Shown here piece by piece: positions 1 to 56,463 of a stretch of DNA of 64,000 nucleotides. Position 1 is the first letter of the stretch. The number at the start of each line of letters is the position of its first letter. Origin of the DNA: Escherichia coli (GTDB taxonomy: Bacteria > Pseudomonadota > Gammaproteobacteria > Enterobacterales > Enterobacteriaceae). Position numbers and translations under genes: made by a program. Location: the NCBI RefSeq assembly GCF_048403405.1, contig NZ_CP183129.1; one strand, 5' to 3'. Below the pieces are notes generated by a model, which was not told where the DNA came from, searched no databases, and was given only the letters and a program-made list of their open reading frames with translations.

Positions 1-1134
1 ACAGGTGCATTTTCTCTTTTCTTATTAATTGTAAATAAAAAGCACAATTATAATAAAAATGTCATTATATTAATTCTTGGTTTACTTCTTTTGGGTGCAA
101 TGAACCTTATATGGTATGAATTTTATAAAACAGAAGATGTAGTATATAGAAATGCTTATCGAGGCTACCTTGAGTCTGGAAAACTATTAGTATTTAGCTC
201 GTTGACATTTTTATTACTAAGTAAAAATAAATTCAGGCAAAATGAAAAACTACATTTTATTTCAGCTATCTTAGTTCAAATAATCATGCTATGTAGAGCA
301 TATTATCAAGGGATATATTTGCATGCAGACCGCATTCCCCTCTCCGCCATGAATGGGAATATTGGTCAGATGGGGGCAGCGACTATTGCGGCTTATGTGA
401 TTACATTTACAACTTTATATTCTTCAATTGTATTCATAAAAATGCAATCGAAATATAAATGGTTTCTATTTTATGCTAACTTTGCTTTAAGCTTTGCAGC
501 AGTAATGATGACAGGAACGCGTGCGGCAATTTTCACATTCCCACTTATGATTATGGTCATATTATTTCTTCAGCATCGTGATCAAAAAGTGTTTTTATTT
601 AAAGGATTGAGTGGTGTTTTTATATTGCTACTTGCTTGTGGTTTGATATTTAATAAGGAAATTGATAGGCGAATTAATTCATTAAAAGCTGATGTTATTT
701 CATATGCTACAAAAAATAACAGTCAATCCTCGGTCGGAGCACGTTTTGCAATGGTTAATGCAGGAATTAAAGGAAGTCCTGATGGTTTTAATTGGCAATC
801 TCTTGAGCAGCGTGCTGAAAAGATAAAAGCATTAAGTGCAGAAAATAATATTTATAGTGGAGCTTTATTATTCCTTGATGTACATATGCATAACGAAATT
901 GTGGAATCTCTTTCCACGAAAGGAAAAATTGGTCTTCTTGTTCTTATTATGTTCTATGTTGCAATGATCTATTACTGTATACGAGAGAAAAAATATATAC
1001 TCTTGGTTTTCCCTGCTTCTATTATGTTATTTGGCATTAGTGATGTCATTACACATGCTAAACCAATACCGGCATCGTGGATTGTGTGCCTCTTCCTGTC
1101 TATATCGTTTTTGAGTAAAAATGAACCACAATAA
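1..1134 (+). CDS. waaL: O-antigen ligase WaaL, 5' end truncated by window edge
   Basis: Frame is open from base 1 with no stop before the listed TTG at 91; polytopic hydrophobic product; AT-rich; sits beside waaC where the ligase gene lies in waa clusters. Convergent with waaC, unlike K-12. Confidence 0.7.
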   Translation, partial: TGAFSLFLLIVNKKHNYNKNVIILILGLLLLGAMNLIWYEFYKTEDVVYRNAYRGYLESGKLLVFSSLTFLLLSKNKFRQNEKLHFISAILVQIIMLCRAYYQGIYLHADRIPLSAMNGNIGQMGAATIAAYVITFTTLYSSIVFIKMQSKYKWFLFYANFALSFAAVMMTGTRAAIFTFPLMIMVILFLQHRDQKVFLFKGLSGVFILLLACGLIFNKEIDRRINSLKADVISYATKNNSQSSVGARFAMVNAGIKGSPDGFNWQSLEQRAEKIKALSAENNIYSGALLFLDVHMHNEIVESLSTKGKIGLLVLIMFYVAMIYYCIREKKYILLVFPASIMLFGISDVITHAKPIPASWIVCLFLSISFLSKNEPQ

Positions 1135-1181
1135 TAAAAGCGTTGACTAAGTAAGTGGGTATAATGCCCACTTACTATTTA

Positions 1182-2141
1182 TTAAATTAATGTGATTTTT
1201 TTATAAACAGCCGCTGCTTCTAAATTATTTAAATTCATTAGCGGAGCCCTACAAACCACCTGATTCTTCCCATATCCGCCAATTAATCCCGGATCGGTTG
1301 GTCCATAAACCGTGATATTCGGTCTATCCAGTGCCGCCGTTAAATGGCTTAACCCCGTATCCACCGACACTACAAATTTAGCCCCGGCCAGTACGCGGGC
1401 AACGCCTTCCAGACTCATCTTCGGCAATACTTCAACATAAGCAAATCCTTCCGCCAGTCGTTTCGCCCGTTCTTCCTCATGCGGCGCGCCCCACGGAAGT
1501 TTAATCCGTATTCCTGAATCAGCCAGTAAACCAATCAATTCTCGCCAGTGTTCTTCCGGCCAGTGTTTATCATCACGGGTCGTCGCATGAAGAAATACGG
1601 CATATTCGCCAGCATCTGTAGGCAGGTTCGTCAGGAAATGTTGTGCGATAGCATAATCACCCTGGGTTTGCGGTTTGCTATAGCCCAAACTTTTGGCAAA
1701 CAGTTCGCGGGTGCGTTCTACGGCGTGCTGCTGTTTTGCAATATGATGCTTACGATTGTAAAACAGGCTGGCTAACGGTTCTCGAACGGTTTGCCAGTCC
1801 ATGCCATGCTTTACGCCATGCGCCAGACGCGTCACCAGCGCCGCGCTTTTTACCAGCCCCTGAGCGTCGATAACTGCGTCATAGTTCTCTGCTTGTAGCG
1901 CTTCACGAAACGCTTTGCGTTCAGCTTTTATGGGGGCCGAGAACCAGGCTTTACGCCAGCGACGTATTGCCACAGGAATAACTCGCTCAACGGCGGCGTG
2001 CCAGGAAGGAATCTGTGCGAACCCTTCTTCCACCACCCAGTCAAACTTAATCCCTGGGATTGCCTGCTGGGCATCAGTGAGTGCGGGCAGCGTATGGAGA
2101 ACATCGCCCATCGACGATGTTTTAACGATCATAACCCGCAT
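1182..2141 (-). CDS. waaC: ADP-heptose:LPS heptosyltransferase I
   Basis: 319 aa, family-9 heptosyltransferase; position in hldD-waaF-waaC operon. Confidence 0.95.
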   Translation of the reverse strand: MRVMIVKTSSMGDVLHTLPALTDAQQAIPGIKFDWVVEEGFAQIPSWHAAVERVIPVAIRRWRKAWFSAPIKAERKAFREALQAENYDAVIDAQGLVKSAALVTRLAHGVKHGMDWQTVREPLASLFYNRKHHIAKQQHAVERTRELFAKSLGYSKPQTQGDYAIAQHFLTNLPTDAGEYAVFLHATTRDDKHWPEEHWRELIGLLADSGIRIKLPWGAPHEEERAKRLAEGFAYVEVLPKMSLEGVARVLAGAKFVVSVDTGLSHLTAALDRPNITVYGPTDPGLIGGYGKNQVVCRAPLMNLNNLEAAAVYKKITLI

Positions 2142-2144
2142 CCG

Positions 2145-3191
2145 TCAGGCTTCCTCTTGTAACAATAGCGTGTTGAGTTCTTCCAGTACGCGCTGGGGAG
2201 TAATGTCGATCAAGCTCTGGTGATAACCCTCCGCAGCGTCACCTTTACGCACTTTGTGATAGCCGGTAATCAGACGGATCACGCGCGCTTTATGGGATAG
2301 CGGTGGTGTGAAGTCCGGGCTACTCGGACCATACAGGGCAACCAGCGGACGATTGAGCGCCGCCGCAACGTGCATCAGACCAGAATCGTTAGTGACAATG
2401 GCTTTACAGGCTGCAATCAGGATAACCGCTTGATCAAGCTGTGTTTCCCCCGCCAGGTTCCGGCACCATGCCTGCTGCTCGGTATTCAAAGCGGCAAGAA
2501 TCTCATTGCCCGCCTCATGATCTTTCGCCGAGCCAAACAGAACCACCTGATAACCTTCATCAATCAGCTGCTTTGCCAGTTCCGCATAGTGGTAGTGTGG
2601 CCAGCGTTTTGCCGGACCAAACTCCGCTCCGGGGCAAAAGCCAATCATCGGACGTTCTGATGAAAGCGAAAATTGATTACAGGTATATGATTTTTCACCT
2701 TCGCTCACCTGCAACTGCGGCCATAACAATGGTTGCGGCAGATCTTGTGCTGTGCGCATAACGCCTTTGTCATAGGCCAGCGCGACATAGCGTTCCACCA
2801 TTAGCGGCCAGGCTTCTTTATCGAGCACGCGTACATCGTTGAGTAAACCGTAGCGCATCTCGCCGCGCCAGCCGGTGCGATGAGGAATACCCGCGAAGAA
2901 AGGCACTAATGCGGACTTGAAGGAGTTGGGTAAGACGTAGGCGCGGTCGTAGCGCTTTTCACGCAGACTATGACCCAGTTTGCGGCGTTCGCCGATTTCC
3001 AGCGCTCCGTGACCGAGAGGCATAGGAATAGCTTCGTTAACTTCCGGCATCCGCGATAATAATGGACGGCACCATGCCGGTGCCATCACGTCGATTATCG
3101 CCTGGGGATAGCGCGCCTGGAGCGTGCGATAGAGACTTTGCGACATCATCATGTCGCCAACCCAAGACGGGCCGATCACCAGTATTTTCAT
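2145..3191 (-). CDS. waaF: ADP-heptose:LPS heptosyltransferase II
   Basis: 348 aa; starts MKILVIGPSWVGDMMM; 3 bp upstream of waaC. Confidence 0.95.
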   Translation of the reverse strand: MKILVIGPSWVGDMMMSQSLYRTLQARYPQAIIDVMAPAWCRPLLSRMPEVNEAIPMPLGHGALEIGERRKLGHSLREKRYDRAYVLPNSFKSALVPFFAGIPHRTGWRGEMRYGLLNDVRVLDKEAWPLMVERYVALAYDKGVMRTAQDLPQPLLWPQLQVSEGEKSYTCNQFSLSSERPMIGFCPGAEFGPAKRWPHYHYAELAKQLIDEGYQVVLFGSAKDHEAGNEILAALNTEQQAWCRNLAGETQLDQAVILIAACKAIVTNDSGLMHVAAALNRPLVALYGPSSPDFTPPLSHKARVIRLITGYHKVRKGDAAEGYHQSLIDITPQRVLEELNTLLLQEEA

Positions 3192-3200
3192 GCAGAGCTC

Positions 3201-4133
3201 TTATGCGTCGCGATTCAGCCAGGCCATGTATTCCGTTACACCTTCAGCAACGGTTTTGAACGGTTTATCGTAACCCGCCGCGCGCAGATTCGTCAGATCT
3301 GCCTGAGTGAACGCCTGATAGCGGCCTTTCAGTTTATCCGGGAACGGAATGTATTCGATCTGGCCTTTCTTGTGATAAGCAAGCGTTGCATCGGCTACAG
3401 CCTGGAAGGATTCCGCACGACCGGTGCCGAGGTTGAAGATGCCGGAAACGCCATTTTCCAGGAACCACAGGTTTACATCTGCCACGTCGCCCACATAGAC
3501 GAAGTCACGTTTGAAGTTCTCGCTACCTTCGAACAGCTTCGGTGATTCACCGTTATTAAGCTGGGTGTTGAGATGGAAAGCGACGCTCGCCATGCTGCCT
3601 TTATGGCCTTCACGCGGTCCATAAACGTTGAAATAGCGGAAGCCAACAATCTGCGAGTTCGCTTCTGGCAGGATTTGACGAACATATTCATCAAACAGGA
3701 ATTTTGAGTAACCGTAGACGTTCAACGGTTTTTCGTACTCGCGGGATTCAATAAAGTCGGAGGTGCGTCCGCCGTAAGTGGCTGCGGAAGAAGCGTACAG
3801 GAACGGGATTTCGCGCTCCAGACAGTAGTGCAGCAGCTCTTTGGAGTATTGATAGTTGTTATCCATCATATACTTGCCATCCCACTCGGTGGTGGAAGAG
3901 CACGCGCCTTCGTGGAAAATCGCTTCGACATCGCCGAACTCTTCGCCAGCCATAATCTGGATCAGGAAGTCTTCCTTATCCATATAGTCCGCGATATCCA
4001 GATCCACCAGGTTCACAAACTTGGTGCCGTCTTTCAGGTTGTCCACCACCAGAATATCGGTGATGCCTTTATCATTCAGGGCCTTAACGATGTTGCTGCC
4101 GATAAAGCCCGCGCCGCCGGTAACGATGATCAT
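3201..4133 (-). CDS. hldD: ADP-L-glycero-D-manno-heptose 6-epimerase
   Basis: 310 aa; N-terminal GGAGFIGSN Rossmann motif; first gene of the operon. Confidence 0.95.
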
Positions 4134-4346
4134 AACTGTAACCTTCGAATTATGGAGTCAGAGACAATCTCAGACACGAATGCTTCTATCATATCACTAC
4201 ACGGCGTTGGCTTCAGCCATTCGCCAAAAGTGAGATTGATGGACGTTATTTATCCTGAATTTTGCAGAAGTGTTAACGCGTCATCTCGTCGCGACCTATA
4301 AGTTTGGGTAATATGTGCTGGAATTTGCCCTGTCTGGAGAATCGCA

Positions 4347-5543
4347 ATGCGTGGAGAATTTTATCAGCAGTTAACCAACGATCTGGAAACCGCACGGGCG
4401 GAAGGGTTGTTTAAAGAAGAGCGCATTATTACGTCTGCGCAGCAAGCAGATATCACTGTGGCTGATGGAAGCCACGTCATTAACTTTTGTGCCAATAACT
4501 ATCTCGGACTGGCGAATCATCCGGATCTGATTGCGGCGGCAAAGGCGGGAATGGATTCTCACGGTTTCGGCATGGCTTCGGTGCGTTTTATTTGCGGCAC
4601 TCAGGACAGCCATAAAGAGCTTGAACAAAAACTGGCGGCCTTCCTGGGGATGGAAGATGCGATTCTCTACTCTTCCTGCTTTGATGCTAACGGTGGCCTG
4701 TTTGAAACGCTGTTGGGCGCGGAAGACGCCATTATCTCCGACGCACTGAACCACGCGTCTATTATTGATGGTGTGCGTCTGTGCAAAGCTAAACGCTATC
4801 GTTATGCCAACAACGATATGCAGGAGCTGGAAGCACGTCTGAAAGAAGCGCGTGAAGCCGGTGCGCGTCATGTGCTGATTGCCACCGATGGTGTGTTCTC
4901 AATGGACGGCGTGATTGCCAACCTGAAGGGCGTTTGCGATCTGGCAGATAAATACGATGCCCTGGTGATGGTAGACGACTCCCACGCGGTCGGTTTTGTC
5001 GGTGAAAATGGTCGTGGTTCCCATGAATACTGCGATGTGATGGGCCGGGTCGATATTATCACCGGTACGCTTGGTAAAGCGCTGGGCGGGGCTTCTGGTG
5101 GTTATACCGCGGCGCGCAAAGAAGTGGTTGAGTGGCTGCGCCAGCGTTCTCGTCCGTACCTGTTCTCCAACTCGCTGGCACCGGCCATTGTTGCCGCTTC
5201 CATCAAAGTGCTGGAGATGGTTGAAGCGGGTAGCGAGCTGCGTGACCGTCTGTGGGCGAACGCGCGTCAGTTCCGTGAGCAAATGTCGGCGGCGGGCTTT
5301 ACCCTGGCGGGAGCCGATCACGCCATTATTCCGGTCATGCTTGGCGATGCGGTAGTAGCGCAGAAATTTGCTCGTGAGCTGCAAAAAGAGGGGATTTACG
5401 TCACCGGTTTCTTCTATCCGGTCGTTCCGAAAGGTCAGGCGCGTATTCGTACCCAGATGTCTGCGGCGCATACCCCTGAGCAAATTACGCGTGCAGTAGA
5501 AGCATTCACGCGTATTGGTAAACAACTGGGCGTTATCGCCTGA
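4347..5543 (+). CDS. kbl: 2-amino-3-ketobutyrate CoA ligase
   Basis: 398 aa PLP-dependent acyltransferase; divergent from hldD; followed by tdh. Confidence 0.95.
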
Positions 5544-6816: not shown

Positions 6817-7851
6817 ATGATGAACAGCACCAATAAACTTAGTGTTATTATTCCGTTATATAATGCAGGCGATGATTTCCGCACTTGTATGGAATCTTTA
6901 ATTACGCAAACCTGGACTGCTCTGGAAATCATTATTATTAACGATGGTTCAACGGATAATTCTGTTGAAATAGCAAAGCATTACGCAGAAAACTATCCGC
7001 ACGTTCGTTTGTTGCATCAGGCGAATGCTGGCGCATCGGTGGCGCGTAATCGTGGGATCGAGGTGGCGACGGGCAAATATGTCGCTTTTGTCGATGCTGA
7101 CGATGAGGTGTATCCCACCATGTACGAAACGCTGATGACCATGGCGTTAGAGGACGACCTCGACGTGGCGCAGTGCAACGCTGACTGGTGTTTTCGTGAA
7201 ACGGGAGAAACCTGGCAATCCATCCCCACCGATCGCCTTCGCTCAACCGGCGTATTAACCGGCCCGGATTGGTTGCGGATGGGGCTTTCTTCCCGCCGTT
7301 GGACTCACGTTGTCTGGATGGGGGTTTATCGCCGCGATGTTATTGTTAAAAATAACATTAAATTTATTGCCGGATTACATCATCAGGATATTGTCTGGAC
7401 AACAGAATTTATGTTTAATGCGCTGCGTGCGCGATATACCGAGCAATCGTTATATAAATATTATCTGCATAATACGTCAGTGAGTCGGTTGAATAGACAA
7501 GGGAATAAAAACCTTAATTATCAACGTCACTATATTAAGATTACCCGACTGTTGGAAAAGTTAAATCGCGATTACGCAGACAGAATAGTGATTTACCCGG
7601 AATTTCATCAACAAATAACTTACGAAGCATTGCGTGTTTGCCATGCGGTGCGCAAAGAGCCGGATATTCTTACCCGCCAACGGATGATTGCCGAGATATT
7701 TACTTCCGGTATGTATAAGCGCCTGATTACTAATGTGCGCAGCGTGAAGGTGGGTTACCAGGCGTTACTGTGGTCTTTCCGCTTATGGCAATGGCGCGAC
7801 AAAACGCGGTCGCACCATCGCATTACGCGTAGCGCCTTTAATTTGCGCTAG
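6817..7851 (+). CDS. waaH: LPS core glycosyltransferase, family 2
   Basis: 344 aa; GT-A type motifs (IINDGSTDNS, DADD); K-12 waaH/yibD position. Confidence 0.85.
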   Translation: MMNSTNKLSVIIPLYNAGDDFRTCMESLITQTWTALEIIIINDGSTDNSVEIAKHYAENYPHVRLLHQANAGASVARNRGIEVATGKYVAFVDADDEVYPTMYETLMTMALEDDLDVAQCNADWCFRETGETWQSIPTDRLRSTGVLTGPDWLRMGLSSRRWTHVVWMGVYRRDVIVKNNIKFIAGLHHQDIVWTTEFMFNALRARYTEQSLYKYYLHNTSVSRLNRQGNKNLNYQRHYIKITRLLEKLNRDYADRIVIYPEFHQQITYEALRVCHAVRKEPDILTRQRMIAEIFTSGMYKRLITNVRSVKVGYQALLWSFRLWQWRDKTRSHHRITRSAFNLR

Positions 7852-24874: not shown

Positions 24875-24917
24875 TATTGATGCTCTCTATTCCTTGATAT
24901 AAGCGCAGAAGCTGCAT

Positions 24918-25601
24918 TTATTTTTTGTTTTTTCGCTGCCGAGTTTCAGCAGGTTGAACAGTGTCGAACTGGAGATTGGCCATATTGATGGACAACTTCA
25001 GATACTTCAGGTTATTAGGCGAAACGCCTTTTAATGTCAGATTAATGTCTTGCCATTGACCAGGCATTAATTGCAGAGTGGAATTCAGGGTGGTGTTGAA
25101 AAGTAATTGTTGCCACTTTGCCAGAGCTTTGGCATCGGCGGGTCTTTCATTGCCCCATGTCGCATGAAAGCCAATATTTGATACGGGAACGCTTAAAAGA
25201 TTAACCAGCGAAATACGAATAACACTGCCATTTTCCACCGCATCAATAGCCAGCACCCGGCCTGCCAAACCGACCGATCCGTTATTTATAATGAAGTATT
25301 GTGTTTGTGCTGGGTTAAATTCTGTAAAGACAAATTCGTCCTGCTTGTCTTTAACCGCTTTCACCACGCCAGCGAGCGTCTTGGTACTATTTATGACAGT
25401 AGTTTGTTGTTTTTCAAAATGTTCTATCTTGCGCTTATCGAGTTCCTGCTGTTTCTCAAGCGCCTCAATTTTGCTTTTTTGCAACTCTTGCTGTGTAACG
25501 AGTTCGTCGACCTTACTCGCTTTTTCAATATAGTCACACCCTGCCAATAAGCAGAGAGGCACTATTATTAACACGCTTAACAGTGTTTTCTTTAGGTTCA
25601 T
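24918..25601 (-). CDS. SadB-like lipoprotein, putative autotransporter biogenesis helper
   Basis: 227 aa; signal peptide with lipobox LLAGC; coiled-coil-prone N-terminal region; stop 43 bp upstream of the autotransporter start, same strand. Confidence 0.65.
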   Translation of the reverse strand: MNLKKTLLSVLIIVPLCLLAGCDYIEKASKVDELVTQQELQKSKIEALEKQQELDKRKIEHFEKQQTTVINSTKTLAGVVKAVKDKQDEFVFTEFNPAQTQYFIINNGSVGLAGRVLAIDAVENGSVIRISLVNLLSVPVSNIGFHATWGNERPADAKALAKWQQLLFNTTLNSTLQLMPGQWQDINLTLKGVSPNNLKYLKLSINMANLQFDTVQPAETRQRKNKK

Positions 25602-33267: not shown

Positions 33268-33789
33268 TTATTCATCGATGCATTTTATAGAATCATCAAT
33301 GGCTACAATAGTACTATTAACTCTCCAATTTATATTTTTATTATCATTGCAAATATTAACTGAATCTATATCAATGATTTTTTTATTTTTATCTTTTATT
33401 TTGTTTACAGTTTCAATGCAATCAGCGACAAGTTGGTGTGGATTTAGATTCTTCAGATATGGTCTTATGATCTTTCCCTTGCTTAATAAATAGCATGTAT
33501 AGGATTCGGAAAGTCCAGCATCTATTTTGTACATCATTATTCTAGATAAGGATGTGAGAAATGCCTTGTTATCATTAGCAGCCATATATGCCAGTCCGAG
33601 TTCAGCCTCTGCGGCTTTACATGAAAAATAGCTAAGTGAACACGCTTTTCGTCCCTCTTGGGTACTGGCTGATATTAGTGCCCATAATATTGCCTTGTCT
33701 GCCAAATCCAACTCTCTCTGAAATTGGTTTACAGTAACTGCATTCGCAGAAATAGAGAAGAAAAGCACAATTGTTAATAACCTTGTCAT
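33268..33789 (-). CDS. Exported Cys-containing protein of unknown function (candidate orphan immunity protein)
   Basis: 173 aa; signal peptide with likely cleavage after ANA; 7 Cys; very AT-rich gene between the Rhs module and yibH. Confidence 0.5.
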   Translation of the reverse strand: MTRLLTIVLFFSISANAVTVNQFQRELDLADKAILWALISASTQEGRKACSLSYFSCKAAEAELGLAYMAANDNKAFLTSLSRIMMYKIDAGLSESYTCYLLSKGKIIRPYLKNLNPHQLVADCIETVNKIKDKNKKIIDIDSVNICNDNKNINWRVNSTIVAIDDSIKCIDE

Positions 33790-34157
33790 ATTTCTAGTCC
33801 GTCACTGTTAATGTGCTATCTGGCTCTGAAAATATTAGCTCATTTAATTTTTGCATGTCATTAGATGAACCAGTTATACAACCCTCGGAACAGAATCGAG
33901 GTCCTAAAGATGGACCAAAAGCGTTTAAACAACTATGTGTTAAAAATCCATCACGATTATACGTTTCTGTATTTGCTGACGGTACTAAACGTATACCATT
34001 AGGTTTTCTATTGGTTGCTCCAGGACTGTTAAGCAAGCCTCGTCCGGTTTGCTTCATTGAGTTCTCCACTTTAGACTATTGGACTATCTTTCAACATGGC
34101 ATCGCCTTAGTATACCGCTGGTTTTCCGCTCATTGTTAATTTTCTCTTTCGTTCATT

Positions 34158-34568
34158 TCACTTAATTTTCAGTTTTTTCCAAAAGTCAATATTCCCTTCT
34201 AATAAAATTTTTTCTATGGAATCTTCATTAATTTTATTATTAGAGCATATGACATTATCTTGAACGCCATATGACACCACCCCGTTTTTATCAATATAAT
34301 ATCTGTCTTTACCATCAATAATATAAATCCTAACATTTTTATCATCAAAATGGTAACACTCATTACTAGACCTGTTCAGTAACATTAATAACTTCTCACG
34401 ATTTATCTGTAATAATTTTTGTGCACCATCTTTTATTGCAAAATTTTCAATTTTACTTTTAGTGACAGGGGAATATGTTTGGATGCGAAAAGGCATCCTA
34501 TAATGGAAAACATCAGCTATACAGCAAGATGAAAAAAATACGGAAATAAAATACAGACATACTTTCAT
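34158..34568 (-). CDS. Putative exported immunity protein cognate to the Rhs C-terminal toxin
   Basis: 136 aa; hydrophobic N-terminus MKVCLYFISVFFSSCC; starts 57 bp after the rhs stop, same strand, with GGAG RBS; AT-rich like the rhs tip. Confidence 0.55.
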   Translation of the reverse strand: MKVCLYFISVFFSSCCIADVFHYRMPFRIQTYSPVTKSKIENFAIKDGAQKLLQINREKLLMLLNRSSNECYHFDDKNVRIYIIDGKDRYYIDKNGVVSYGVQDNVICSNNKINEDSIEKILLEGNIDFWKKLKIK

Positions 34569-34625
34569 ACCATCTCCTAAACTGGTGATATATTAAAAAC
34601 ATACCCAAAAGCAATATAAAAATGT

Positions 34626-37600
34626 TTAATATTTCATTCTTGCTGGCAAGCCCAACTCTTTACGAAATGGGTTTTCATATTTATCAACATTAGCCATCGA
34701 GTCAGTTCCATCGTCTTTCATTCCCTTTGCATGCCCCATTTCATGCGCAAGAACCACACTCAACAGAGTGGGTTTCATGGCACATGCTTTGTTTTTTCCT
34801 TGATATACACATGAGCTATGGTCGTTATCAATATCAATGTAAAAACTATATTCAGTATCATCGTAGCATGTTTGGTTTATGCCTTTTCTTAATCCTCTAA
34901 ATATATATTCATGCTCTGATGACTCTAATTCTTCTGTTATTTTATGTCCAAACTTTGTTTCTGCTACAGCTTTATATGCTTCTTTTAAAGTTTTTTGTGT
35001 ACTTTCATCTCCCTGAAAAGACACTTTTAACCCTAATGGATCGAAACCAGATACCGGATTCAACGGATACTGATAAAAATTCCATCCCCCCTTAAGCCCA
35101 ATCGGATCCTGAGTGATATACCGCCCCTGCAGCGGGTCATAATAGCGGTGGCGGTTGTAATAGAGGCCGGACTCCTCATCATACTGCTGACCCGGCAGGC
35201 GGATGAGCTGCTGCAGCTGGTGCGGGTTCTCTTCATTCAGCAGGTTGCCCCATTCATCGTATTCTGCGCACCATTCTGTTGCCCCTTCCGTGCTGACAAG
35301 CGCCAGCGGCAGGCCGCGATGGTCGCAGTGGTACAGGTGGATTTTTCGCGCCGGCGTGTACACCGGGTCCATCTGGTTTTGTATCTGCTCCACCGTCAGG
35401 CCGCACGATGCCAGCCAGCGGCGGCTTTCCTCACTCACCCGGTCAGCCAGGATTTCACTTTCCAGCCGGTCGAGCATCTGCACCAGCACCGGCGGGAACA
35501 CCACACTGCCACCGTCTTCACCGCCGGACTGCTGAAGCGCATCCGCCAGGCTGCGGCGCTGCGTTTTCGCCAGCTCACCGGTGGCAGTTTCAACTCTGAT
35601 GAGTGGCGTGAAGCTCCCCGGCTGATAAACCGTCTGGATGCGGGTTCTGTCGTTCTGTATTGTGGTCAGCCGGTCGCCGTCCCAGCCGTACCAGGTCACT
35701 TCCGGTTTCCGTGACAGCGACATCCAGCCCGTCAGGTCCCGTTCACGCCGCCACACCCGTTTTGCCACCCTGCGGCCCAGCGGGTCGTAAAGATAGCGAC
35801 TTTCGACCAGCGGCTCTGCATATTGTGTCCGCGTGTAGTGCACCAGCCGGTGCCGGCTGTCGTAATGGTACCGGTGAGTCCGCTCATCATCCGTACGGAT
35901 AACCCCTTCCGGGATGAGGTCGGTTTTCTCCGTCAGCCTGCCGTGACGGTCATACCGGTAAAGATAGTGCGCGTCACGGGCGATACGGTTATCCGGCCAC
36001 ATGCTGAGGGTGCTGTCCGGGTGCAGCTCCGGGTCGGGCAGGCGGTTACCTGCCGGGTCCGTGGCATACGGGATGCGGATATCCAGATTCGCTGCGGTGG
36101 TGTGGACGCCGGTCAGCCTGCCGGTGTCGCTGTAGCTGTAACTCCGGGTCTGGCGCGGGCTGCTGATGCGGATGAGTTCGCCGTTGTCGTTCCAGGTGTA
36201 ATCGCGGTCATACTGCAGGCTGTTCAGGTGCTGGCTCTGTAACTGCCCGGCAGAGGTGTAAGCGGTGGTGAGTTCATAACGGCCGAAGCTGCGCAGCGTT
36301 TCCCGGTGCAGGCGGTCGCGGGTGAAATCCACCAGCGGTGTGTCGCCGAGTTTCATGCCTGACAGCCAGCCGCTGCCGTAGGTCAGCCATTCCACGGCGG
36401 GCAGGCTGTCCGGTATACAGCGGTTCGCCAGTCCCTGCGCGTTGTACGCATGTCTGGTTTCATGCTGCCAGAGCAGTGCTTCCGTCTGCGGGTGATGCAC
36501 CGTCTGGCGCTCACCGGTCAGGCGGCCTTTCTCATCATACCCGTAATGCACCGTCACCCGGTGGCCTTCGCTGAGATGGCTGATGCCTGTCAGCCAGCCG
36601 CGTTCGTCATACTGCCACTGCTCTGCAGGTTCACCCTTCACGGTGCGGTGAGTGAGGCGGTCTGCTTCGTCATAGTGCCAGTGGGTGACCAGCCCCTCAT
36701 CCTCGCTGCGGATAAGTTTACCGGTCAGGTCGTGGTGATAACGCTGTGTGCGGCCGTCAAAGCCGGTTTCCTGTATCAGCCGGTCAAGTACATCGTAACG
36801 GAAGGTGGTGTGGCTGCCGTTTTCACTGGTCAGGCGGATGACCCGCCCGGCAGCATCGTATTCCATACTGCGCGTCAGACCGCCCTGCGTGGTACGAACG
36901 GGCTTTCCCCACGCATCGTACTGTGTCCCGTTTCTGCTGCCGTCCGGGGCAATGACGGCGGTCAGGTCACCGGCGGCGTTGTATTCATACCGCGTTTCAT
37001 GGCCCTGCGTGTCTTTCACCGCAATTAACTGTCCACGGCTGTCGTATGCGCGGTACTGACTCAGCCCTTCCTCGCGGTGCACCGCCGTCACCTGACCAAA
37101 ACGGTCATGGTCATAACGGGTTACATAACCGGAACAGTCAGTGACGGTCAGCAACTGACCGTAACGGCTCCATGTCATGGTTTTCCGGCTGCCGGTGGCA
37201 TCTTCCGTTGCGCAGGGTAAGTCACTGTGTGGATTATCATAACGGTAGCGGGTGATATCGCCGTTGTGTGCGGTTTCCTGAATCAGACGGCCGGATTCAT
37301 CATATTTGCGGCGCAACTCCAGCCCGTCAGTCCCGGTGGCTGACGTTAACTGGTTGTGGTGGTTATAGTAAAATGCCGATGCCCTGCCATCCGGTGTGGT
37401 GATGCGCGTGATGAGTCCCGTCACCACATCCGGGCTGTACTCAGTCGTCCGGCCTGCGGCATCCGTCTGTGCCTTAAGCCCGCCCACCGCGTCAAACTGA
37501 CTCTGCGTGACGCTGCCGTCCGCGTGTTCCTTTTTCACCACCCGCTTCAGCCCGCCTTCGCCCTGCGTGTGCAGCACTTCACGGCGGTCCAGACTGTCGG

Positions 37601-38756
37601 TGATGGTGATGCGGTCTTTCTCATACTGATACGTGTAGCTTAAGCCTGCCGGGTTTAGCTGTTCTGTCACCCGCCCGTCGCTGTCGTAACGGTAACGGAT
37701 ATCCGGCCGGCCCGTGTGACGGTGCGCCACCATCCGGCCCCGGTATTTATCATCGTAAGTAAAGCTGCGCACCTGTGTATTGCTGCGGTCATACACCGCC
37801 GCCAGTTCGCCGCGTGGCGTCCAGCCATAGCGCACCAGCGGCGCGGCAGGTAAATTCTCCGGGTATTCCGGGTCGTGCGTCAGCCACACGGCAGACAGAC
37901 GGATGCCGTTGTCCCGGCCATATTCGGTGTAACCCGGCAGGGTATCAGGAAAAACGGACGGTTCCGCCCCGCCGGAAGAGGCCTGCTGCCGGGCTTCTTC
38001 TGCCCGCTGCGCCTGCGTGGTCAGTACCAGCCGGAAGTGACGCCCGGCACCATCCGTCACGCCGGTGATTTCGCCGCCAGCCTCACGGTGGAACGTCTGT
38101 GTGCGCCCGAAGCGGTCCACCAGCCCGGTCAGTACCCGGTACGGCGGCAGCGGCGCGGGCAGCACCTCATCCGCCTCCGGCACCTGCTCACACCAGCCGA
38201 GTACCCACCACGGCCCCTGCGGACTGTTTGTCGCCAGATAACGATGCGGACTCAGGCGGAGTTCTTCCGGCAGCGCCTGCCAGAGTGCGGCCAGCCGGTG
38301 ACCTTCATCCAGTTTCAGGACACCGCCACGCACCAGCCAGAGTGATTCGCTGCGGCTGTAACCGTCCTCACCGGGAAACAGGTGCTCAAAATACAGGCTC
38401 CTGCCGCCGTTATCACTGAGTATCAGTGTGTTATCGCGCAGCTGTAGGCGGATATCCGCAGGCATTTTCCAGCCGGGGCCGAGGCTCCCCACCGGCGCGG
38501 GCGTTTTTGTCCGGTAACTGCTGTAGGTGCGGGAGAGGATGAACGGCAGCGGGCCGGGCAGGGCAAGGTCGGTTTCGCCGGGAAGGACCTTCGCACCGAG
38601 CAGCGGATTGACCGGATGGCCGGACGTCACCCCGCCGGGGCACACCGAACAGGCCACGCCGGTGGGGGCACCAATACGTACCCCGGCAGAACCCTGAACA
38701 ATGCTACCGCCATACTGCGTCATGTCGCCCTGACGCGCCGCCGGTTTTCCGCTCAT
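34626..38756 (-). CDS. Rhs-family polymorphic toxin with PAAR-like N-terminus and HExxH metallopeptidase-like C-terminal tip
   Basis: 1376 aa; Gly-rich PAAR-like N-terminal region; many YD repeats; core ends ...DPIGL...DPLGL; 133-aa tail contains [20 protein letters not shown] (HEMGH coded at 34728-34745); GC-rich core switches to AT-rich coding at ~35030. Confidence 0.85.
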
Positions 38757-46034: not shown

Positions 46035-46102
46035 GCCTGATGCGACGCTTACGCGTTTTATCATGCCTACGGGGACCTGACCGTAGGCCGGATAAGGCGT
46101 AC
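46035..46102. repeat. REP/BIME palindromic units, the second split by IS insertion
   Basis: GCCTGATGCGACGCTTACGCG...ATGCCTAC, then GTAGGCCGGATAAGGCGT whose partner half ACACGCCGCATCCGGC resumes at 47537. Confidence 0.8.
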
Positions 46103-46144
46103 TGAACTGCACCCCAAATGTTGGACATAATCTGACATCTGAAG

Positions 46145-46675
46145 GTGCAGTTTATGAAACATTCATTTGAAGTAAAAATTGCCGCTGTAAATCATTACCT
46201 GGCCGGTCATGCAGGCATCATTTCTACGGCAAAACTCTTTCAACTTTCTCACACCAGCCTCTCACACTGGATTAATCTTTTTCTTCTTCACGGTCCTCGG
46301 GCACTGGATTGCAGACACAGGCGTAGCTATTCTCCTGAAGATAAACTTTGCGTGGTTCTTTATGCTCTCGGGCATTCTGAGTCTCTACCCCGGGTAGCTG
46401 CCCGGTTTAACATTCCCAGCCACAACACGGTTAAAAACTGGATAAAAGGCTACCGCAAATCTGGTAATGAGGCCTTTATCAGGCGCAGGAAGGAGAAAAG
46501 CATGACCCGTTCTGATGATACCCATGAAAACGAAGCAAACATGACGCCGGAAGAGATGAAGAATGAGCTGCGTTATCTTCGCGCAGAAAATGCATATCTG
46601 AAAGCCATGCAGGAGCATCTCCTGGAAAAAAAGCGCCAGGAGCTGGAGAAAAAACGAAAGTCATCCGGAGCCTGA
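46145..46675 (+). CDS. IS transposase OrfA (HTH)
   Basis: 176 aa; helix-turn-helix N-terminus and leucine-zipper-like C-terminus typical of IS3-family OrfA. Confidence 0.85.
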   Translation: MQFMKHSFEVKIAAVNHYLAGHAGIISTAKLFQLSHTSLSHWINLFLLHGPRALDCRHRRSYSPEDKLCVVLYALGHSESLPRVAARFNIPSHNTVKNWIKGYRKSGNEAFIRRRKEKSMTRSDDTHENEANMTPEEMKNELRYLRAENAYLKAMQEHLLEKKRQELEKKRKSSGA

Positions 46676-46779
46676 GGTGCGGACACTGCCAGTCTGACCT
46701 GTTAAAGGCTGCAGGGCTGGCCAGAAGCACGCTGTACTACCAGCTGTCACTGCAGAAGGCTAAGGACAAGTATGCTGAT

Positions 46780-47535
<756 letters not shown>

Positions 47536-47664
47536 ACACGCCGCATCCGGCATAAACAAAGCGCACGTTGTTACAATTTACGTTTTAAACCTACGTGCGC
47601 AATAACCCAATAACCCAGACTACGCCAACAGAAGTGCGTTTCTGGGGCGTGTTTTGCCAGGAGT

Positions 47665-51339: not shown

Positions 51340-52116
<777 letters not shown>

Positions 52117-52220
52117 ATCAGCATACTTGTCCTTAGCCTTCTGCAGTGACAGCTGGTAGTACAGCGTGCTTCTGGCCAGCCCTGCAGCCTTTAACAGGTC
52201 AGACTGGCAGTGTCCGCACC

Positions 52221-52751
52221 TCAGGCTCCGGATGACTTTCGTTTTTTCTCCAGCTCCTGGCGCTTTTTTTCCAGGAGATGCTCCTGCATGGCTTTCAGAT
52301 ATGCATTTTCTGCGCGAAGATAACGCAGCTCATTCTTCATCTCTTCCGGCGTCATGTTTGCTTCGTTTTCATGGGTATCATCAGAACGGGTCATGCTTTT
52401 CTCCTTCCTGCGCCTGATAAAGGCCTCATTACCAGATTTGCGGTAGCCTTTTATCCAGTTTTTAACCGTGTTGTGGCTGGGAATGTTAAACCGGGCAGCT
52501 ACCCGGGGTAGAGACTCAGAATGCCCGAGAGCATAAAGAACCACGCAAAGTTTATCTTCAGGAGAATAGCTACGCCTGTGTCTGCAATCCAGTGCCCGAG
52601 GACCGTGAAGAAGAAAAAGATTAATCCAGTGTGAGAGGCTGGTGTGAGAAAGTTGAAAGAGTTTTGCCGTAGAAATGATGCCTGCATGACCGGCCAGGTA
52701 ATGATTTACAGCGGCAATTTTTACTTCAAATGAATGTTTCATAAACTGCAC
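52221..52751 (-). CDS. IS transposase OrfA, copy B
   Basis: Identical 176-aa product to copy A. Confidence 0.85.
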   Translation of the reverse strand: MQFMKHSFEVKIAAVNHYLAGHAGIISTAKLFQLSHTSLSHWINLFLLHGPRALDCRHRRSYSPEDKLCVVLYALGHSESLPRVAARFNIPSHNTVKNWIKGYRKSGNEAFIRRRKEKSMTRSDDTHENEANMTPEEMKNELRYLRAENAYLKAMQEHLLEKKRQELEKKRKSSGA

Positions 52752-52793
52752 CTTCAGATGTCAGATTATGTCCAACATTTGGGGTGCAGTTCA

Positions 52794-52865
52794 GTTAAGC
52801 GTCGCATCAGGCAATGTGCACCCTACGGTGGATGCGGCGCGAGTGCCTTATCCAACCTACGGATG
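52794..52865. repeat. REP/BIME palindromic units flanking IS copy B
   Basis: AGCGTCGCATCAGGC ... GGATGCGGCGCGAGTGCCTTATCCAACCTACGG; overlaps the 3' end of the glycoside hydrolase gene. Confidence 0.7.
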
Positions 52866-54827
52866 GCAATGCTTTTCCTCATTCACCCAGATCCGCATTT
52901 CGCCTTCACCCCGGTTGGCCCAGCTAAACCACGGGATAAACGTTAGAGTTTGCGGCTGGCGTTTGGCTGGCGCGCTGTCGTAATGCCACAGCGGTTGCTG
53001 CTCTGGATTGCTCTGTTCATACCGGTAACCCGGAGCCTGGATTAAGATCTTATGGCGGAACAATCCCTTGCCTTCAAATGTCGTAAATGGCGCATCGGCG
53101 GGCAGCCACAGGTTATGCAGTGACTCGCCGTTGTCGGCCTGTTCCAGGCAATACACCAGCGGGCCGCGCTGAATCGCCACTTTTCCGGCGACGTGACGCA
53201 CCTGAGGGTTACCGTAAACGCGGCGTACCGGCATCGGCAAAGTCAGATTCAGCGTATCGCCCTCCTGCCATTCGCGGGTAATGTGCAAATACCCTTTACG
53301 AATATCCTGCCCGACCTCTTCCCCATTCAATATGATCTGCGGCTGTGTGCACCAGTCCGGCAGACGTAAAGCCAGCGTATGACGCACCGGCTGGGGCGAT
53401 TCAACCGCAATCGTCACCTGCTCCTGCCACGGATAGTTTCCGCTAACCCGCAGACGCAGCGTGCCATTTTCTACCGGCACTTCCATGCTGTTTCCTGCGT
53501 AGATGTTGATATACAACGCATCTTCACGCGGCGTGTAGAGATAATGACCAATCGAGGTTAGCACGCGGGCGATATTTGGCGGACAACAAGCGCAACCAAA
53601 CCAACGCTGGCGGATCGGCTTAACGTGATCGTAGATATGGTTGAATTTTAACGTTTTTGGATGCACTTCCAGCGGATTCACATAGAAGAAATGTTTGCCA
53701 TCCAGCGCCATGCCGCCGAGCACGGTGTTGTACAGTGCGCGCTCCATCACATCGGCATATTGACTGTCGCCTTCCATTTCCAGCATTCGCCGGGCGAACA
53801 TCATCAGGCCGATGGAAGCACAGCTTTCGGCGTATACCGTGTCATTCGGCAGATCGTAATCGCTGCTGAACGCTTCGCCGCTGCTTTGTGAGCCAATGCC
53901 GCCGGTAATATATAACTGACGCTGGGCCATATTGTTCCACAGCCGCAGGCAATCCTGACGCTTGCTTTCATCGTGACTTAAACGCGCCAGATGTGCGACG
54001 CCAGTCATCAGATATACAAAGCGTACTGCATGTCCGATGGCGGTTTGTTGCTGTGCGATGGGTAAATGCGCCTGGCTGTAGGCTTTATCTTTCACCATCC
54101 ACGCCGGGCCGTAGGTGTGCCAGTGCGAGGTCTGCCCGCGCTTTTCATATTCCTGGTCGTAATAGTGCGGTTGCGCACCACGCTGTTCGACAAAATAGTT
54201 CGCCAGCGCCAGGTAGCGCGGCTCTTCGGTCACTTCATACAGGCGCATTAGTGCCAGTTCAATTTCCGGGTGACCAGGATAACCGTGTAACTTACTTTCA
54301 CCTGGACCAAATACGCTGTCGATATGATCGGCCAGACGGCAAACCACTTCCAGCAAGCGCCGCTTGCCCGTGGCCTGGAAGAAGGCGACTCCGGCTTCAA
54401 TCAGATGACCGGCGCAGTAAAGTTCATGACACTCCGCCAGATTGCTCCAGCGTTCTTCGGGCGCTTTTACCGTAAAGTAAGTATTGAGATAGCCATCTTC
54501 GCACTGGGCGGAAGCGACCAGTTCGATTACCTCGTCAGCAGTTTTTTCCAGTTCGGCATCCGGCTTCTGGCACAGCGACCAGGCTACCGCTTCCAGCCAT
54601 TTGGCGACGTCGCTGTCCTGAAACACCATCCCGTAAAATTCACCGTCTTGCAGTCCTGCGGCAATGCGAAAGTTTTCAATCGCATGGCTGGGTTCCGCTT
54701 CTGGGATACGATCGTTCAAGGCATCCCACTGATAAGGAATCACCACGTCGCGGACCAGTTGTTGGTACTGACCGAGGAACGGATCGCTGACCGTCAGTTT
54801 ATGCAGATCGACTTCCGAAATGTTCAT
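52857..54827 (-). CDS. Glycoside hydrolase family 127 (DUF1680, beta-L-arabinofuranosidase-like)
   Basis: Start trimmed to MNISEVDLHKL (656 aa) with GGAG RBS 10 bp after the transporter stop; conserved Cys-rich segment WFGCACCPPN of the family as I recall it. Confidence 0.7.
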   Translation of the reverse strand: MNISEVDLHKLTVSDPFLGQYQQLVRDVVIPYQWDALNDRIPEAEPSHAIENFRIAAGLQDGEFYGMVFQDSDVAKWLEAVAWSLCQKPDAELEKTADEVIELVASAQCEDGYLNTYFTVKAPEERWSNLAECHELYCAGHLIEAGVAFFQATGKRRLLEVVCRLADHIDSVFGPGESKLHGYPGHPEIELALMRLYEVTEEPRYLALANYFVEQRGAQPHYYDQEYEKRGQTSHWHTYGPAWMVKDKAYSQAHLPIAQQQTAIGHAVRFVYLMTGVAHLARLSHDESKRQDCLRLWNNMAQRQLYITGGIGSQSSGEAFSSDYDLPNDTVYAESCASIGLMMFARRMLEMEGDSQYADVMERALYNTVLGGMALDGKHFFYVNPLEVHPKTLKFNHIYDHVKPIRQRWFGCACCPPNIARVLTSIGHYLYTPREDALYINIYAGNSMEVPVENGTLRLRVSGNYPWQEQVTIAVESPQPVRHTLALRLPDWCTQPQIILNGEEVGQDIRKGYLHITREWQEGDTLNLTLPMPVRRVYGNPQVRHVAGKVAIQRGPLVYCLEQADNGESLHNLWLPADAPFTTFEGKGLFRHKILIQAPGYRYEQSNPEQQPLWHYDSAPAKRQPQTLTFIPWFSWANRGEGEMRIWVNEEKHCHP

Positions 54828-54837
54828 CTTGTGCTCC

Positions 54838-56238
54838 TTAAGGCTGTACATGACGCTGACGCAGGTCGCTAGCAATGCGTGACATCATAGGGTTATTGAG
54901 TTTGCAAAAGCGGATCGCCCCTGCCAGCAGCAGGTGGAATAGCGCAGGCAGCAATGTTTCCATCGCCGTGATCCCGCCAAGCGAACTGGTGGTCTGGTTT
55001 TCCACGCCTGGCTGGTAGGCGACAAAAATAAACAGCAGGCTGATGATCCCGGCGCTGGAGGCCCAGGCCAGCTTGATGAAAAACAGATTGAAGGCGAAGT
55101 TCATGCCGGAAGAACGTACGCGGGTTTTCCACTCGCCGTAGTCATCGGCAAAGGCCATCAATGAGAAGTGCAGTGGCAATGTGAAGCCAAGAATCACGCC
55201 ATTACCGAGGATCACCGCCAGCCACAGCGTTTGATAAGCCGGGCCGGAGGGCAGGAACCACATCAACACCGCCAGCGCAGCGAGGAGCAGGTTGGTGTAG
55301 TAATAAATTTTGACGGTATCGAAACGCCGCGTTAACGGGCTGACAATCACCGAGCCGATAATGGAGGCGAAGGTGACCATGGTGAAGAACAGCGACGTGT
55401 AGCCCGTACTGCCTTGTAAGACGTAGGTAATGAAGTACATATACCCACCGCCGCGAATGTTAAAGACGTTAATCAGCAGGAAAGACATGACCAGCATCAG
55501 CAGTAGTTGGTCGTTGTTTCGCAGCCCGGCAAGATGTTCGCGCAGGGTAAATTTCCCCATTGTGGAGAGTGGCACCCGTTCACGAACCCAGAAGAAACAG
55601 CACAGGAACATCACCACAGCGATGGCGCACAGCACGCCGACGCCCAGTTGATAGCCGCGCGCGGCATTACCCTGACCGAAGAGATCTACCATCCACGGTA
55701 AGCCTACCGAAACCAGAAATCCCGCTACGCCGCAGAGAACGAATCGCCAGGACTGGCAGGAGATCACTTCATTGTGGCGGGTGGTCATGGTGTTGATCAG
55801 CGCGCAGTACGGCACGTTGATGGCGGTATAACCGACTGAAAGGAGCAGGTAAGTGCCGAACGCCCAGGCGATTTTTACTCCCATGCTGGCATCTGGCACG
55901 GTGAACGTCAGGATGCCGATAATGCCGATGGGAATGGCAATCCATAACTGCCACGGACGAAAGCGCCCCCAGCGACTTTGCGTCCGGTCGGCAATGACGC
56001 CCATCACCGGGTCGGAGATGGCATCAAACACGCGCAGTGCAATAAACAGCGTGCCGACCAGCGCCGGAGTTAAGCCAAAAACGTCGGTGTAGAAAAAGGT
56101 GAGAAAGTTCATGATCAGGCAAGTTATTACGGTGCCGCCTGCGTCACCCAGGCCGTAGCCTATTTTTTCCCGTACAGATAACGCATCGTCAATTTTACCT
56201 TTAGCGATATCAGCGGCAGTAATCGGTGTAGAGGTCAT
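54838..56238 (-). CDS. GPH-family glycoside/pentoside/hexuronide:cation symporter
   Basis: 466 aa; 12-TM MFS-like protein with MelB/YicJ-type N-terminal motif; immediately upstream of the hydrolase gene. Confidence 0.8.
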
Positions 56239-56463
56239 AGATATTCCTCGTGAATAGGGAGCAATTTTTAGTTTTATTGCAATGACCTGATTAATTCTGC
56301 CGTGAACGGGAATATCAACAAGGCGAGAAAAGAGTAAAAAAAGGTGACGATTCCGACCTGAATTTAAAAGTGTGAAATGGATCAGGTGAATTTAATGTTT
56401 TTGATTAATAATCAAAAGGTAATGTGTTTAATCATTAATGAATAAGCGGGAAATTACATATCA

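Follow-up and report, generated by a model that had tools for sequence, protein, structure and literature searches.

The window, i.e., the whole stretch of 64,000 nucleotides of Escherichia coli DNA that was analysed, very probably begins part-way through the gene that closes the central (waaQ) operon of an R4-type lipopolysaccharide (LPS) core locus. The basis for this assignment is the ligase allele together with near-identical genomes, the diagnostic outer-core genes lying outside the window. The window start is organized as follows:

1–1134, plus strand: 3' part of waaL (codons 41–417 and the stop codon; last 1134 nt of a 1254-nt gene)
1182–2141, minus strand: waaC/rfaC, heptosyltransferase I, from ORF and annotation; last gene of the hldD–waaF–waaC operon
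2145–3191, minus strand: waaF/rfaF, heptosyltransferase II, from ORF and annotation
3201–4133, minus strand: hldD/rfaD, ADP-L-glycero-D-manno-heptose 6-epimerase, from ORF and annotation; first gene of the minus-strand operon
4134–4346, no strand assigned: divergent hldD–kbl intergenic region of 213 nt, from gene calls and annotation

Frame 1 is open from base 1 for 377 codons and ends in a TAA stop at 1132–1134, the first 120 nt of waaL being located upstream of the window start. The strands and this open frame agree with the earlier note, which had placed hldD–waaF–waaC on the minus strand and a ligase gene on the plus strand, entering from upstream. The waaL and waaC stop codons face each other across a spacer of 47 nt (1135–1181), and nothing is disrupted inside the window. 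The convergent waaL/waaC layout is a fact of gene order rather than a statistical pattern. It departs genuinely from K-12 MG1655, where rfaD–waaF–waaC–waaL share one strand; the statement in the same note that K-12 waaL ends an hldD–waaF–waaC–waaL operon was correct. At the other end of the minus-strand operon, htrL/yibB is missing from the hldD–kbl gap of the window; the gene is present there in K-12 and O157 Sakai, and DNA comparison places a break in K-12 homology at window 4183–4242, within the hldD–kbl region.

Many E. coli genomes contain a gene annotated as 'O-antigen ligase family protein', the 3' part of which is matched by the DNA of window 1–1134 with 100% identity, and the window waaL is 100% identical to waaL of genomes typing as R4. 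The source name of the protein is 'Lipid A-core surface polymer ligase WaaL'. Its amino acid sequence is 29–31% identical to K-12 WaaL (BLASTP E=3e-42, 31% identity over 353 residues) and 34% identical to R1 WaaL, and a profile of four E. coli WaaL proteins, the window allele included, matches the solved WaaL structure 7TPG with E=6.5e-18. Pfam Wzy_C (PF04932) scores 31.6 bits against a gathering cutoff of 31.7 (E=1.7e-7), or 31.5 bits with the full-length protein, and no NCBIfam model matched the ligase or the GT25 protein encoded by the adjoining gene. The ligase was named by direct comparison with K-12 WaaL and PDB 7TPG, Wzy_C being 0.1 bit short, and these two matches uphold the proposal that the plus-strand ORF is ligase-like and can be aligned to reference WaaL proteins. 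The GC content of waaL is 27–36%. Three of its codons fall in invariant alignment columns:

520–522, plus strand: codon of WaaL Arg214, aligned with K-12 Arg215; column invariant in the R4, R4b, R1, and K-12 ligases
742–744, plus strand: codon of WaaL Arg288, aligned with K-12 Arg288; column invariant
889–891, plus strand: codon of WaaL His337, aligned with K-12 His338, in a conserved HxHN motif; column invariant

Arg214, Arg288, and His337 are all seen in the window translation and are invariant in the four-ligase alignment, and His337 aligns with an 'H-A-H-N-D' stretch of 7TPG. In K-12 WaaL, the periplasmic residues Arg215, Arg288, and His338 are said to be essential, a result ascribed to Perez et al. 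in 2008.

The genes upstream of the window were read from near-identical genomes. Across 64 kb, 3 mismatches separate the window from E. coli strain 4621, the only genome compared across its whole length, and GN02461, MS 69-1, and TUM1226 are identical to it over the first 6 kb. In these four genomes and in SLK172, the upstream row is waaQ-G-P-O-T-Y-W-waaX(GT25)-waaL on the plus strand, and the full locus in the near-identical genomes consists of waaA–coaD on the minus strand, waaQ-...-waaL on the plus strand, and hldD–waaF–waaC on the minus strand. As suggested earlier, the ligase gene is the last of an opposing central operon, and the expectation of a non-K-12 core is borne out both by this upstream gene set, which differs from that of K-12, and by the divergence of the ligase from K-12 WaaL. 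The primer pair R4-F/R1R4-R, applied by in silico PCR, amplifies the R4 product at exactly 380 bp from each of the five genomes. The typing of the upstream waa cluster against R1–R4 and K-12 that the earlier note had called for, here run on the near-identical genomes, consequently returned R4; the primers are those of the LPSTyper set (PMC13293308), and the controls were typed correctly (MG1655 as K-12, LY180 as R1, Sakai as R3, and GPEC1292 as R2). The GT25 protein adjoining waaL is identical to Q9ZIS2_ECOLX, the UniRef name of which is beta-1,4-galactosyltransferase. Published sources conflict with respect to the WaaX linkage, which is beta-1,3 on GlcII according to PMC3526765 and beta-1,4, as in the UniRef name, according to PMC13293308.

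There is next to no chance that the locus is instead an R1-type core cluster, the other type with a convergent waaL. The two types have the same layout, and the genes from waaQ to most of waaW are about 97% identical, but the window ligase is too distant from R1 WaaL (34% identity), and no R1 genome matches the DNA of window 1–1134, the lone exception being a 62-nt match in a genome without an assigned core type. The R1-F primer, which yields an 842-bp product in the R1 control LY180, has no site within 3 mismatches in strain 4621, and this strain carries a GT25 gene in place of the GT2 gene of R1. On these grounds, i.e., DNA matches, R1 primer, and WaaL identity, an R1 identity of the locus was rejected.

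Of 5426 complete E. coli genomes, 691 carry the window waaL, at a single location and colinear with waaC–waaF–hldD–kbl in every case (691/691), which agrees with a published R4 share of 13.0% (PMC8715443). The waaW gene, marking R1 and R4, was found in 2536 of the 5426 genomes, corresponding to a convergent layout in ~47%. A hybrid or rearranged waa locus, in which the ligase allele would not be predictive of the remaining cluster, is scarcely credible in view of this regularity. The upstream genes are outside the window, and an R1/R4 double-ligase hybrid is known for ECOR46 (PMC13293308), but the waaL of the window is confined to one place next to a colinear waaC in all genomes that carry it; furthermore, 691 genomes cover waaW, waaX, and the start of waaL, and the canonical order was observed in 5/5 inspected R4 genomes.

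A locus that is R4 by gene content could still be non-functional in the source strain, if an IS1 element upstream truncates the outer core and leaves the ligase without its acceptor, making the strain rough. Such a truncated core is possible because IS1 splits the GT8 gene waaT in strain 4621, the closest genome, and IS1 is also found in other R4 genomes, in waaW (strain 405, H61) and in waaL (strain 98222, H21). However, waaT is intact in GN02461, MS 69-1, and TUM1226, the three genomes that match the first 6 kb of the window exactly; in addition, the window and strain 4621 are not fully identical, and the window itself is undisrupted. We therefore consider a disrupted outer core rather unlikely.

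The backbone of the R4 core oligosaccharide is Gal-Gal-Glc-Glc and carries a beta-Gal side branch; the GT25 enzyme WaaX attaches this beta-galactose, which the literature assumes to be the R4 acceptor. WaaL is the inner-membrane enzyme that ligates undecaprenyl-pyrophosphate-linked O-antigen onto the completed lipid A-core. Given its position as the 3'-terminal gene of the waaQ operon, waaL is probably expressed from the waaQ leader, which contains ops, whereas K-12 waaL is transcribed from the hldD promoters; in strain 4621, the ops core GGCGGTAG is found 54 nt upstream of the waaQ start. Both converging transcripts probably end at a hairpin between the two stop codons:

1150–1176, no strand assigned: perfect 12-bp hairpin in the 47-nt waaL/waaC spacer; candidate terminator, mainly for the waaQ...waaL transcript

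The terminator-like scan detects this hairpin on the plus strand with a ATTTATTAAA tail, and the calculated RNA fold is −18.4 kcal/mol (z=−4.8) for the plus strand and −15.7 kcal/mol (z=−2.9) for the minus strand. The hairpin is the sole noteworthy feature of the promoter/terminator scan of 1–4500, in which neither class was enriched relative to shuffled sequences (promoter-like 6 vs 7.7, terminator-like 6 vs 5.0). Searches with Rfam at gathering thresholds and with ARAGORN gave no matches over the whole 64-kb window.

Beyond the spacer, waaC ends in ~20 codons (window 1182–~1241) that are core-type-specific. DNA homology to K-12, R1, and R3 begins only at window 1242–1261, the waaC alignments break after '...CRAP', and GC rises abruptly in this region, from about 33% to about 50%. 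Since the waaC tail is specific to each core type, a recombination junction is marked there. The AT-rich outer-core and ligase block is best read as a swappable cassette, the right-hand recombination junction of which lies within the last ~60 nt of waaC.

The ligase gene is itself mosaic:

481–900, plus strand: waaL mosaic segment (residues ~201–340) that separates two R4 waaL alleles of E. coli

Over this segment of ~420 nt, the window allele and the SLK172 allele have 73–82% nucleotide identity (about 78% overall), whereas the flanking parts of waaL are 95–100% identical, mostly at least 98%. The two encoded proteins share 93% identity, and their differences are concentrated in the residues of the segment. 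The window allele is the commoner of the two (~615 genomes, compared with 77 for the SLK172-type allele). The segment matches the region of 7TPG bearing the conserved Arg/Arg/His positions, and based on the K-12 topology together with the 7TPG alignment, we take it to encode the periplasmic loop in which the catalytic Arg and His residues are located. Should the swapped segment alter donor or acceptor preference, 'R4' would comprise two functionally distinct ligase sub-types, a distinctly improbable outcome.

The autotransporter island of the window had been taken as non-K-12 and as a pointer to an extraintestinal lineage. The former holds, the autotransporter gene being absent from K-12, but not the latter. 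Because the enterohaemorrhagic strain O157 Sakai has an adhesin-annotated gene, together with a small upstream gene, at the same yibL–lldP site, the autotransporter alone is no extraintestinal marker and was rejected as non-diagnostic. An extraintestinal lineage is better supported by the fact that two of the near-identical genomes are from blood isolates, and by published data (PMC13293308) that link R4 to ST38, ST405, ST648, and ST117 and show it to be enriched in phylogroups D, F, and G as well as among ExPEC clones, including ST38 and ST405.

The convergent R4 layout is real, ordinary, common, and already known. Textbook knowledge since 1998–2000 includes all five E. coli core types with their gene orders, and in silico typers already call them; the layout therefore has little value as a discovery. 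The practical value is one of annotation, in that the strain can be labelled as R4 core type, a label that bears on phage-receptor prediction, on core-directed antibodies and vaccines, and on O-antigen ligation compatibility. Furthermore, core typing is feasible from a partial ligase sequence combined with gene orientation.

The layout had been attributed to R1, R3, and R4 alike, which is right for R1 and R4, but wrong for R3. O157:H7 Sakai, which is R3 by in silico PCR, has hldD–waaF–waaC–waaL on one strand, with waaL on the strand of waaC, and a convergent R3 layout was rejected because of this K-12-like order. As for MG1655, the same genes are on one strand in GPEC1292 (R2). Among the reference loci typed, only R1 and R4 are convergent, and K-12, R2, and R3 have the same-strand arrangement.

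The R4 reference strain is F2513 (Heinrichs et al. 1998, J Biol Chem 273:29497; Amor et al. 2000). Between the R4 core locus and the window locus there is no substantive difference: the ligase allele is the same, waaX is Q9ZIS2 (strain 4621), and the convergent waaQ-...-X-L order and the 380-bp amplicon are shared. R1, as represented by LY180, a derivative of E. coli W, also has a convergent waaL–waaC pair and likewise lacks htrL beside hldD, and it shares waaQ through most of waaW with R4 at the identity given above. Unlike R4, R1 has the GT2 gene waaV where R4 has the GT25 gene waaX, its WaaL is just 34% identical, and its WaaC has a different tail, with 323 aa compared with 319 aa in the window. 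K-12 (MG1655) shares the three-operon plan, and hldD, waaF, and most of waaC are about 98% identical, but waaL follows waaC on the same strand and encodes a ligase that is 29–31% identical, htrL is located between kbl and hldD, and the outer-core genes are different (waaS, waaB, waaJ, waaZ, and waaU). The WaaL of Cupriavidus metallidurans (PDB 7TPG/7TPJ) is a distant relative from another genus, of which only ~170 residues are alignable by sequence, but it is a homologous ligase, and the match spans the segment with the conserved Arg and His positions.

At the start of the window, a plus-strand O-antigen ligase gene faces three minus-strand genes (these three named from the RefSeq annotation of identical DNA):

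1-1134, plus strand: 3' part of waaL, O-antigen ligase; frame 1 open from base 1, TAA stop at 1132-1134
1182-2141, minus strand: rfaC (waaC)
2145-3191, minus strand: rfaF (waaF)
3201-4133, minus strand: rfaD (hldD)

The minus-strand trio is tightly packed, and the stop codons of waaL and waaC are opposed, with 47 nt between them. The convergence described in the earlier note is therefore present, and differs from K-12 MG1655, where rfaD, waaF, waaC and waaL all lie on one strand. Over 64 kb the window differs by 3 mismatches from strain 4621, an E. coli blood isolate (Houston), and its first 6 kb are 100% identical to GN02461, MS 69-1, TUM1226 and other genomes. Since the ligase gene measures 1254 nt in these near-identical genomes, the window lacks the first 120 nt of waaL. 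The diagnostic outer-core genes are located outside the window and were read in the near-identical genomes, where a plus-strand row comprises waaQ, waaG, waaP, waaO, waaT (GT8), waaY, waaW, a GT25 gene (257 aa product) and waaL, with intergenic gaps of at most 34 nt, or overlaps, and with the divergent waaA-coaD pair upstream. As the last gene of the waaQ row, the ligase does belong to the opposing central operon, as had been proposed.

RefSeq names the product of the plus-strand ORF "O-antigen ligase family protein" in identical DNA, and its source name is "Lipid A-core surface polymer ligase WaaL". The Pfam Wzy_C match (E=1.7e-7, 31.6 bits) falls 0.1 bit below the curated cutoff; the partial (window 1-1131) and full-length R4 proteins are 0.1–0.2 bit under this gathering threshold, and no NCBIfam model matches R4 WaaL, such that strict threshold-based annotation would leave the protein unnamed. 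Direct sequence comparison settles its identification as a WaaL ligase. The 377-residue fragment is 31% identical to K-12 WaaL over 353 residues (E=3e-42), and a profile built from four E. coli ligases, including that of the window, matches 7TPG, the solved WaaL structure from Cupriavidus metallidurans (E=6.5e-18). Arg215, Arg288 and His338 are essential in K-12 WaaL, and the corresponding columns are invariant in the ligase alignment, which places the following codons (numbering of the full-length protein):

520-522, plus strand: Arg214 (K-12 Arg215)
742-744, plus strand: Arg288 (K-12 Arg288)
889-891, plus strand: His337 (K-12 His338)

The locus is of the R4 core type. In silico PCR with the five LPSTyper primer pairs (PMC13293308, Table 2) gives the R4 product, exactly 380 bp, for strain 4621 and for four other genomes with the window's ligase, and the R1-specific primer has no site in strain 4621 with up to 3 mismatches allowed. 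Control amplicons from the same script all have the expected sizes (MG1655, K-12, 1442 bp; LY180, R1, 842 bp; GPEC1292, R2, 610 bp; O157 Sakai, R3, 1021 bp), and the procedure therefore separates the core types. The GT25 protein, WaaX, is identical in sequence to UniRef Q9ZIS2_ECOLX, named beta-1,4-galactosyltransferase.

In strain 4621, waaT is interrupted by IS1, and a truncated core would be expected; waaT is intact in three further genomes that match the window fully across 6 kb. R4 strains repeatedly show IS1 in their AT-rich outer-core genes, namely in waaT (strain 4621; 12325-13022 of its locus L001, upstream of the window), waaW (strain 405, H61) and waaL (strain 98222, H21), and each insertion would be expected to produce rough LPS.

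Of 5426 complete E. coli genomes, 691 (12.7%) carry R4 waaL, always as a single copy colinear with waaC-waaF-hldD-kbl. Two alleles are present: ~615 genomes match the window at 97.6% identity or more, and 77 at ~90.9%. They are 95–100% identical, mostly at least 98%, outside gene positions 601–1020 (window 481-900), and 73–82%, about 78% overall, within this block. The proteins are 93% identical with changes clustered at residues ~209–330, and by alignment to 7TPG the divergent block is the loop in which the conserved Arg and His residues lie. The neighbouring waaX (99% identical) and the WaaC tail are shared by both alleles. The variation is a recombinational mosaic.

GC content is 27–36% in the ligase DNA versus 48–58% in waaC-waaF-hldD, with a step at ~1200-1250. 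DNA homology to K-12, R1 and R3 starts only at 1242-1261, within waaC, and the last ~20 residues of WaaC, past "...CRAP" (window 1182-1241, minus strand), are therefore type-specific in all five core types (WaaC length range 318–330 aa). On the left side, R1–R4 homology stops ~70 nt before the waaW stop. Because of the GC step and these homology breaks, core-type switching appears to replace an AT-rich block via recombination in conserved flanks, with one junction inside the waaC coding sequence.

The inner-core heptoses are supplied and attached via hldD, waaF and waaC, the outer core is built and decorated by the waaQ operon, and WaaL, acting on the periplasmic side of the inner membrane, joins Und-PP-linked O-antigen to the finished core. 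As waaL closes the waaQ row, 34 nt past waaX, co-transcription with the outer-core genes is probable. In strain 4621 the ops core GGCGGTAG precedes the waaQ start codon by 54 nt, and the waaL transcript would start with this leader; expression of the ligase would then depend on RfaH, rather than on the hldD promoters as in K-12. A candidate terminator is located in the spacer between the converging genes:

1150-1176: perfect 12-bp hairpin with a T-rich tail on the plus strand

Its predicted fold (plus strand −18.4 kcal/mol, z=−4.8; minus strand −15.7 kcal/mol, z=−2.9) makes it plausible for the waaQ transcript and weaker for the hldD transcript. That the beta-Gal side branch added by WaaX serves as the R4 acceptor is an unproven assumption (PMC7504096). 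On its linkage the sources differ: beta-1,3 to GlcII in PMC3526765, beta-1,4 in PMC13293308 and in the UniRef name.

Further features of the window are the following:

6817-7851, plus strand: waaH, UDP-glucuronate:LPS(HepIII) glycosyltransferase
19646-24874, minus strand: YadA-like trimeric autotransporter, 1742 aa, between lldP and yibL
24918-25601, minus strand: SadB/YajI-family lipoprotein, between lldP and yibL
33268-33789, minus strand: Imm57-family immunity gene, downstream of the RHS gene, with a hypothetical gene
34626-38756, minus strand: RHS element core protein
~46101-47540 and ~51355-52795: two inverted IS1397 copies, 99.9% identical
52857-57279: glycoside hydrolase family 127, MFS transporter and AraC-family regulator genes

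The waaH gene is a further core-modifying gene outside the waa cluster, past kbl-tdh. The segment 4134-4346 is without htrL/yibB, as in the R1 (LY180) and R2 (GPEC1292) examples; that gene separates kbl from hldD in K-12 and O157 Sakai (R3). The autotransporter and lipoprotein genes (19646-25601) are missing from K-12, whose yibL and lldP genes are direct neighbours; repeats with an offset of ~234 nt occur at about 22304-23489. This island does fit a non-K-12 lineage, but, contrary to the earlier suggestion, it does not mark an extraintestinal one, since the corresponding position in O157 Sakai is occupied by an adhesin-annotated gene and a small gene upstream of it. The RHS region (33268-38756) sits between yibH and yibF, presumably the K-12 rhsA site. 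The IS1397 copies flank yiaW-yiaV-yiaU-yiaT in a composite-transposon-like layout that might support inversion. The 52857-57279 genes are bounded by the second copy and by araD (annotated name of the L-ribulose-5-phosphate 4-epimerase gene); no such genes are known at this site in K-12.

Strain 98224 (H60) matches only the final 62 nt of R4 waaL (window 1073-1134; NZ_CP173472.1 2678253-2678314; 98.4% identity), in an unannotated stretch that may be an R4 cassette remnant.

R4 accounts for 13.0% of 269 non-clonal genomes (PMC8715443), predominates in phylogroups D (60.9%), F (51.4%) and G (84.9%), and is associated with ST38, ST117, ST405 and ST648 (PMC13293308). Among the 5426 complete genomes, 2536 (46.7%) carry waaW, common to R1 and R4, and 1032 the K-12-type waaL-waaU-waaZ block. 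The convergent R4 layout is ordinary and already known. Among typed references, waaL ends the central operon and converges on waaC in R4 (4621, SLK172 and others) and R1 (LY180), while hldD-waaF-waaC-waaL is same-strand in K-12, R2 (GPEC1292) and R3 (Sakai). The earlier interpretation was essentially right; of the R1/R3/R4 types listed as sharing the layout, R3 is excluded by Sakai, and the type is narrowed to R4. R1 differs in having a 327-aa GT2 gene where R4 has the GT25 gene, and its WaaL is only 34% identical to the window's ligase.
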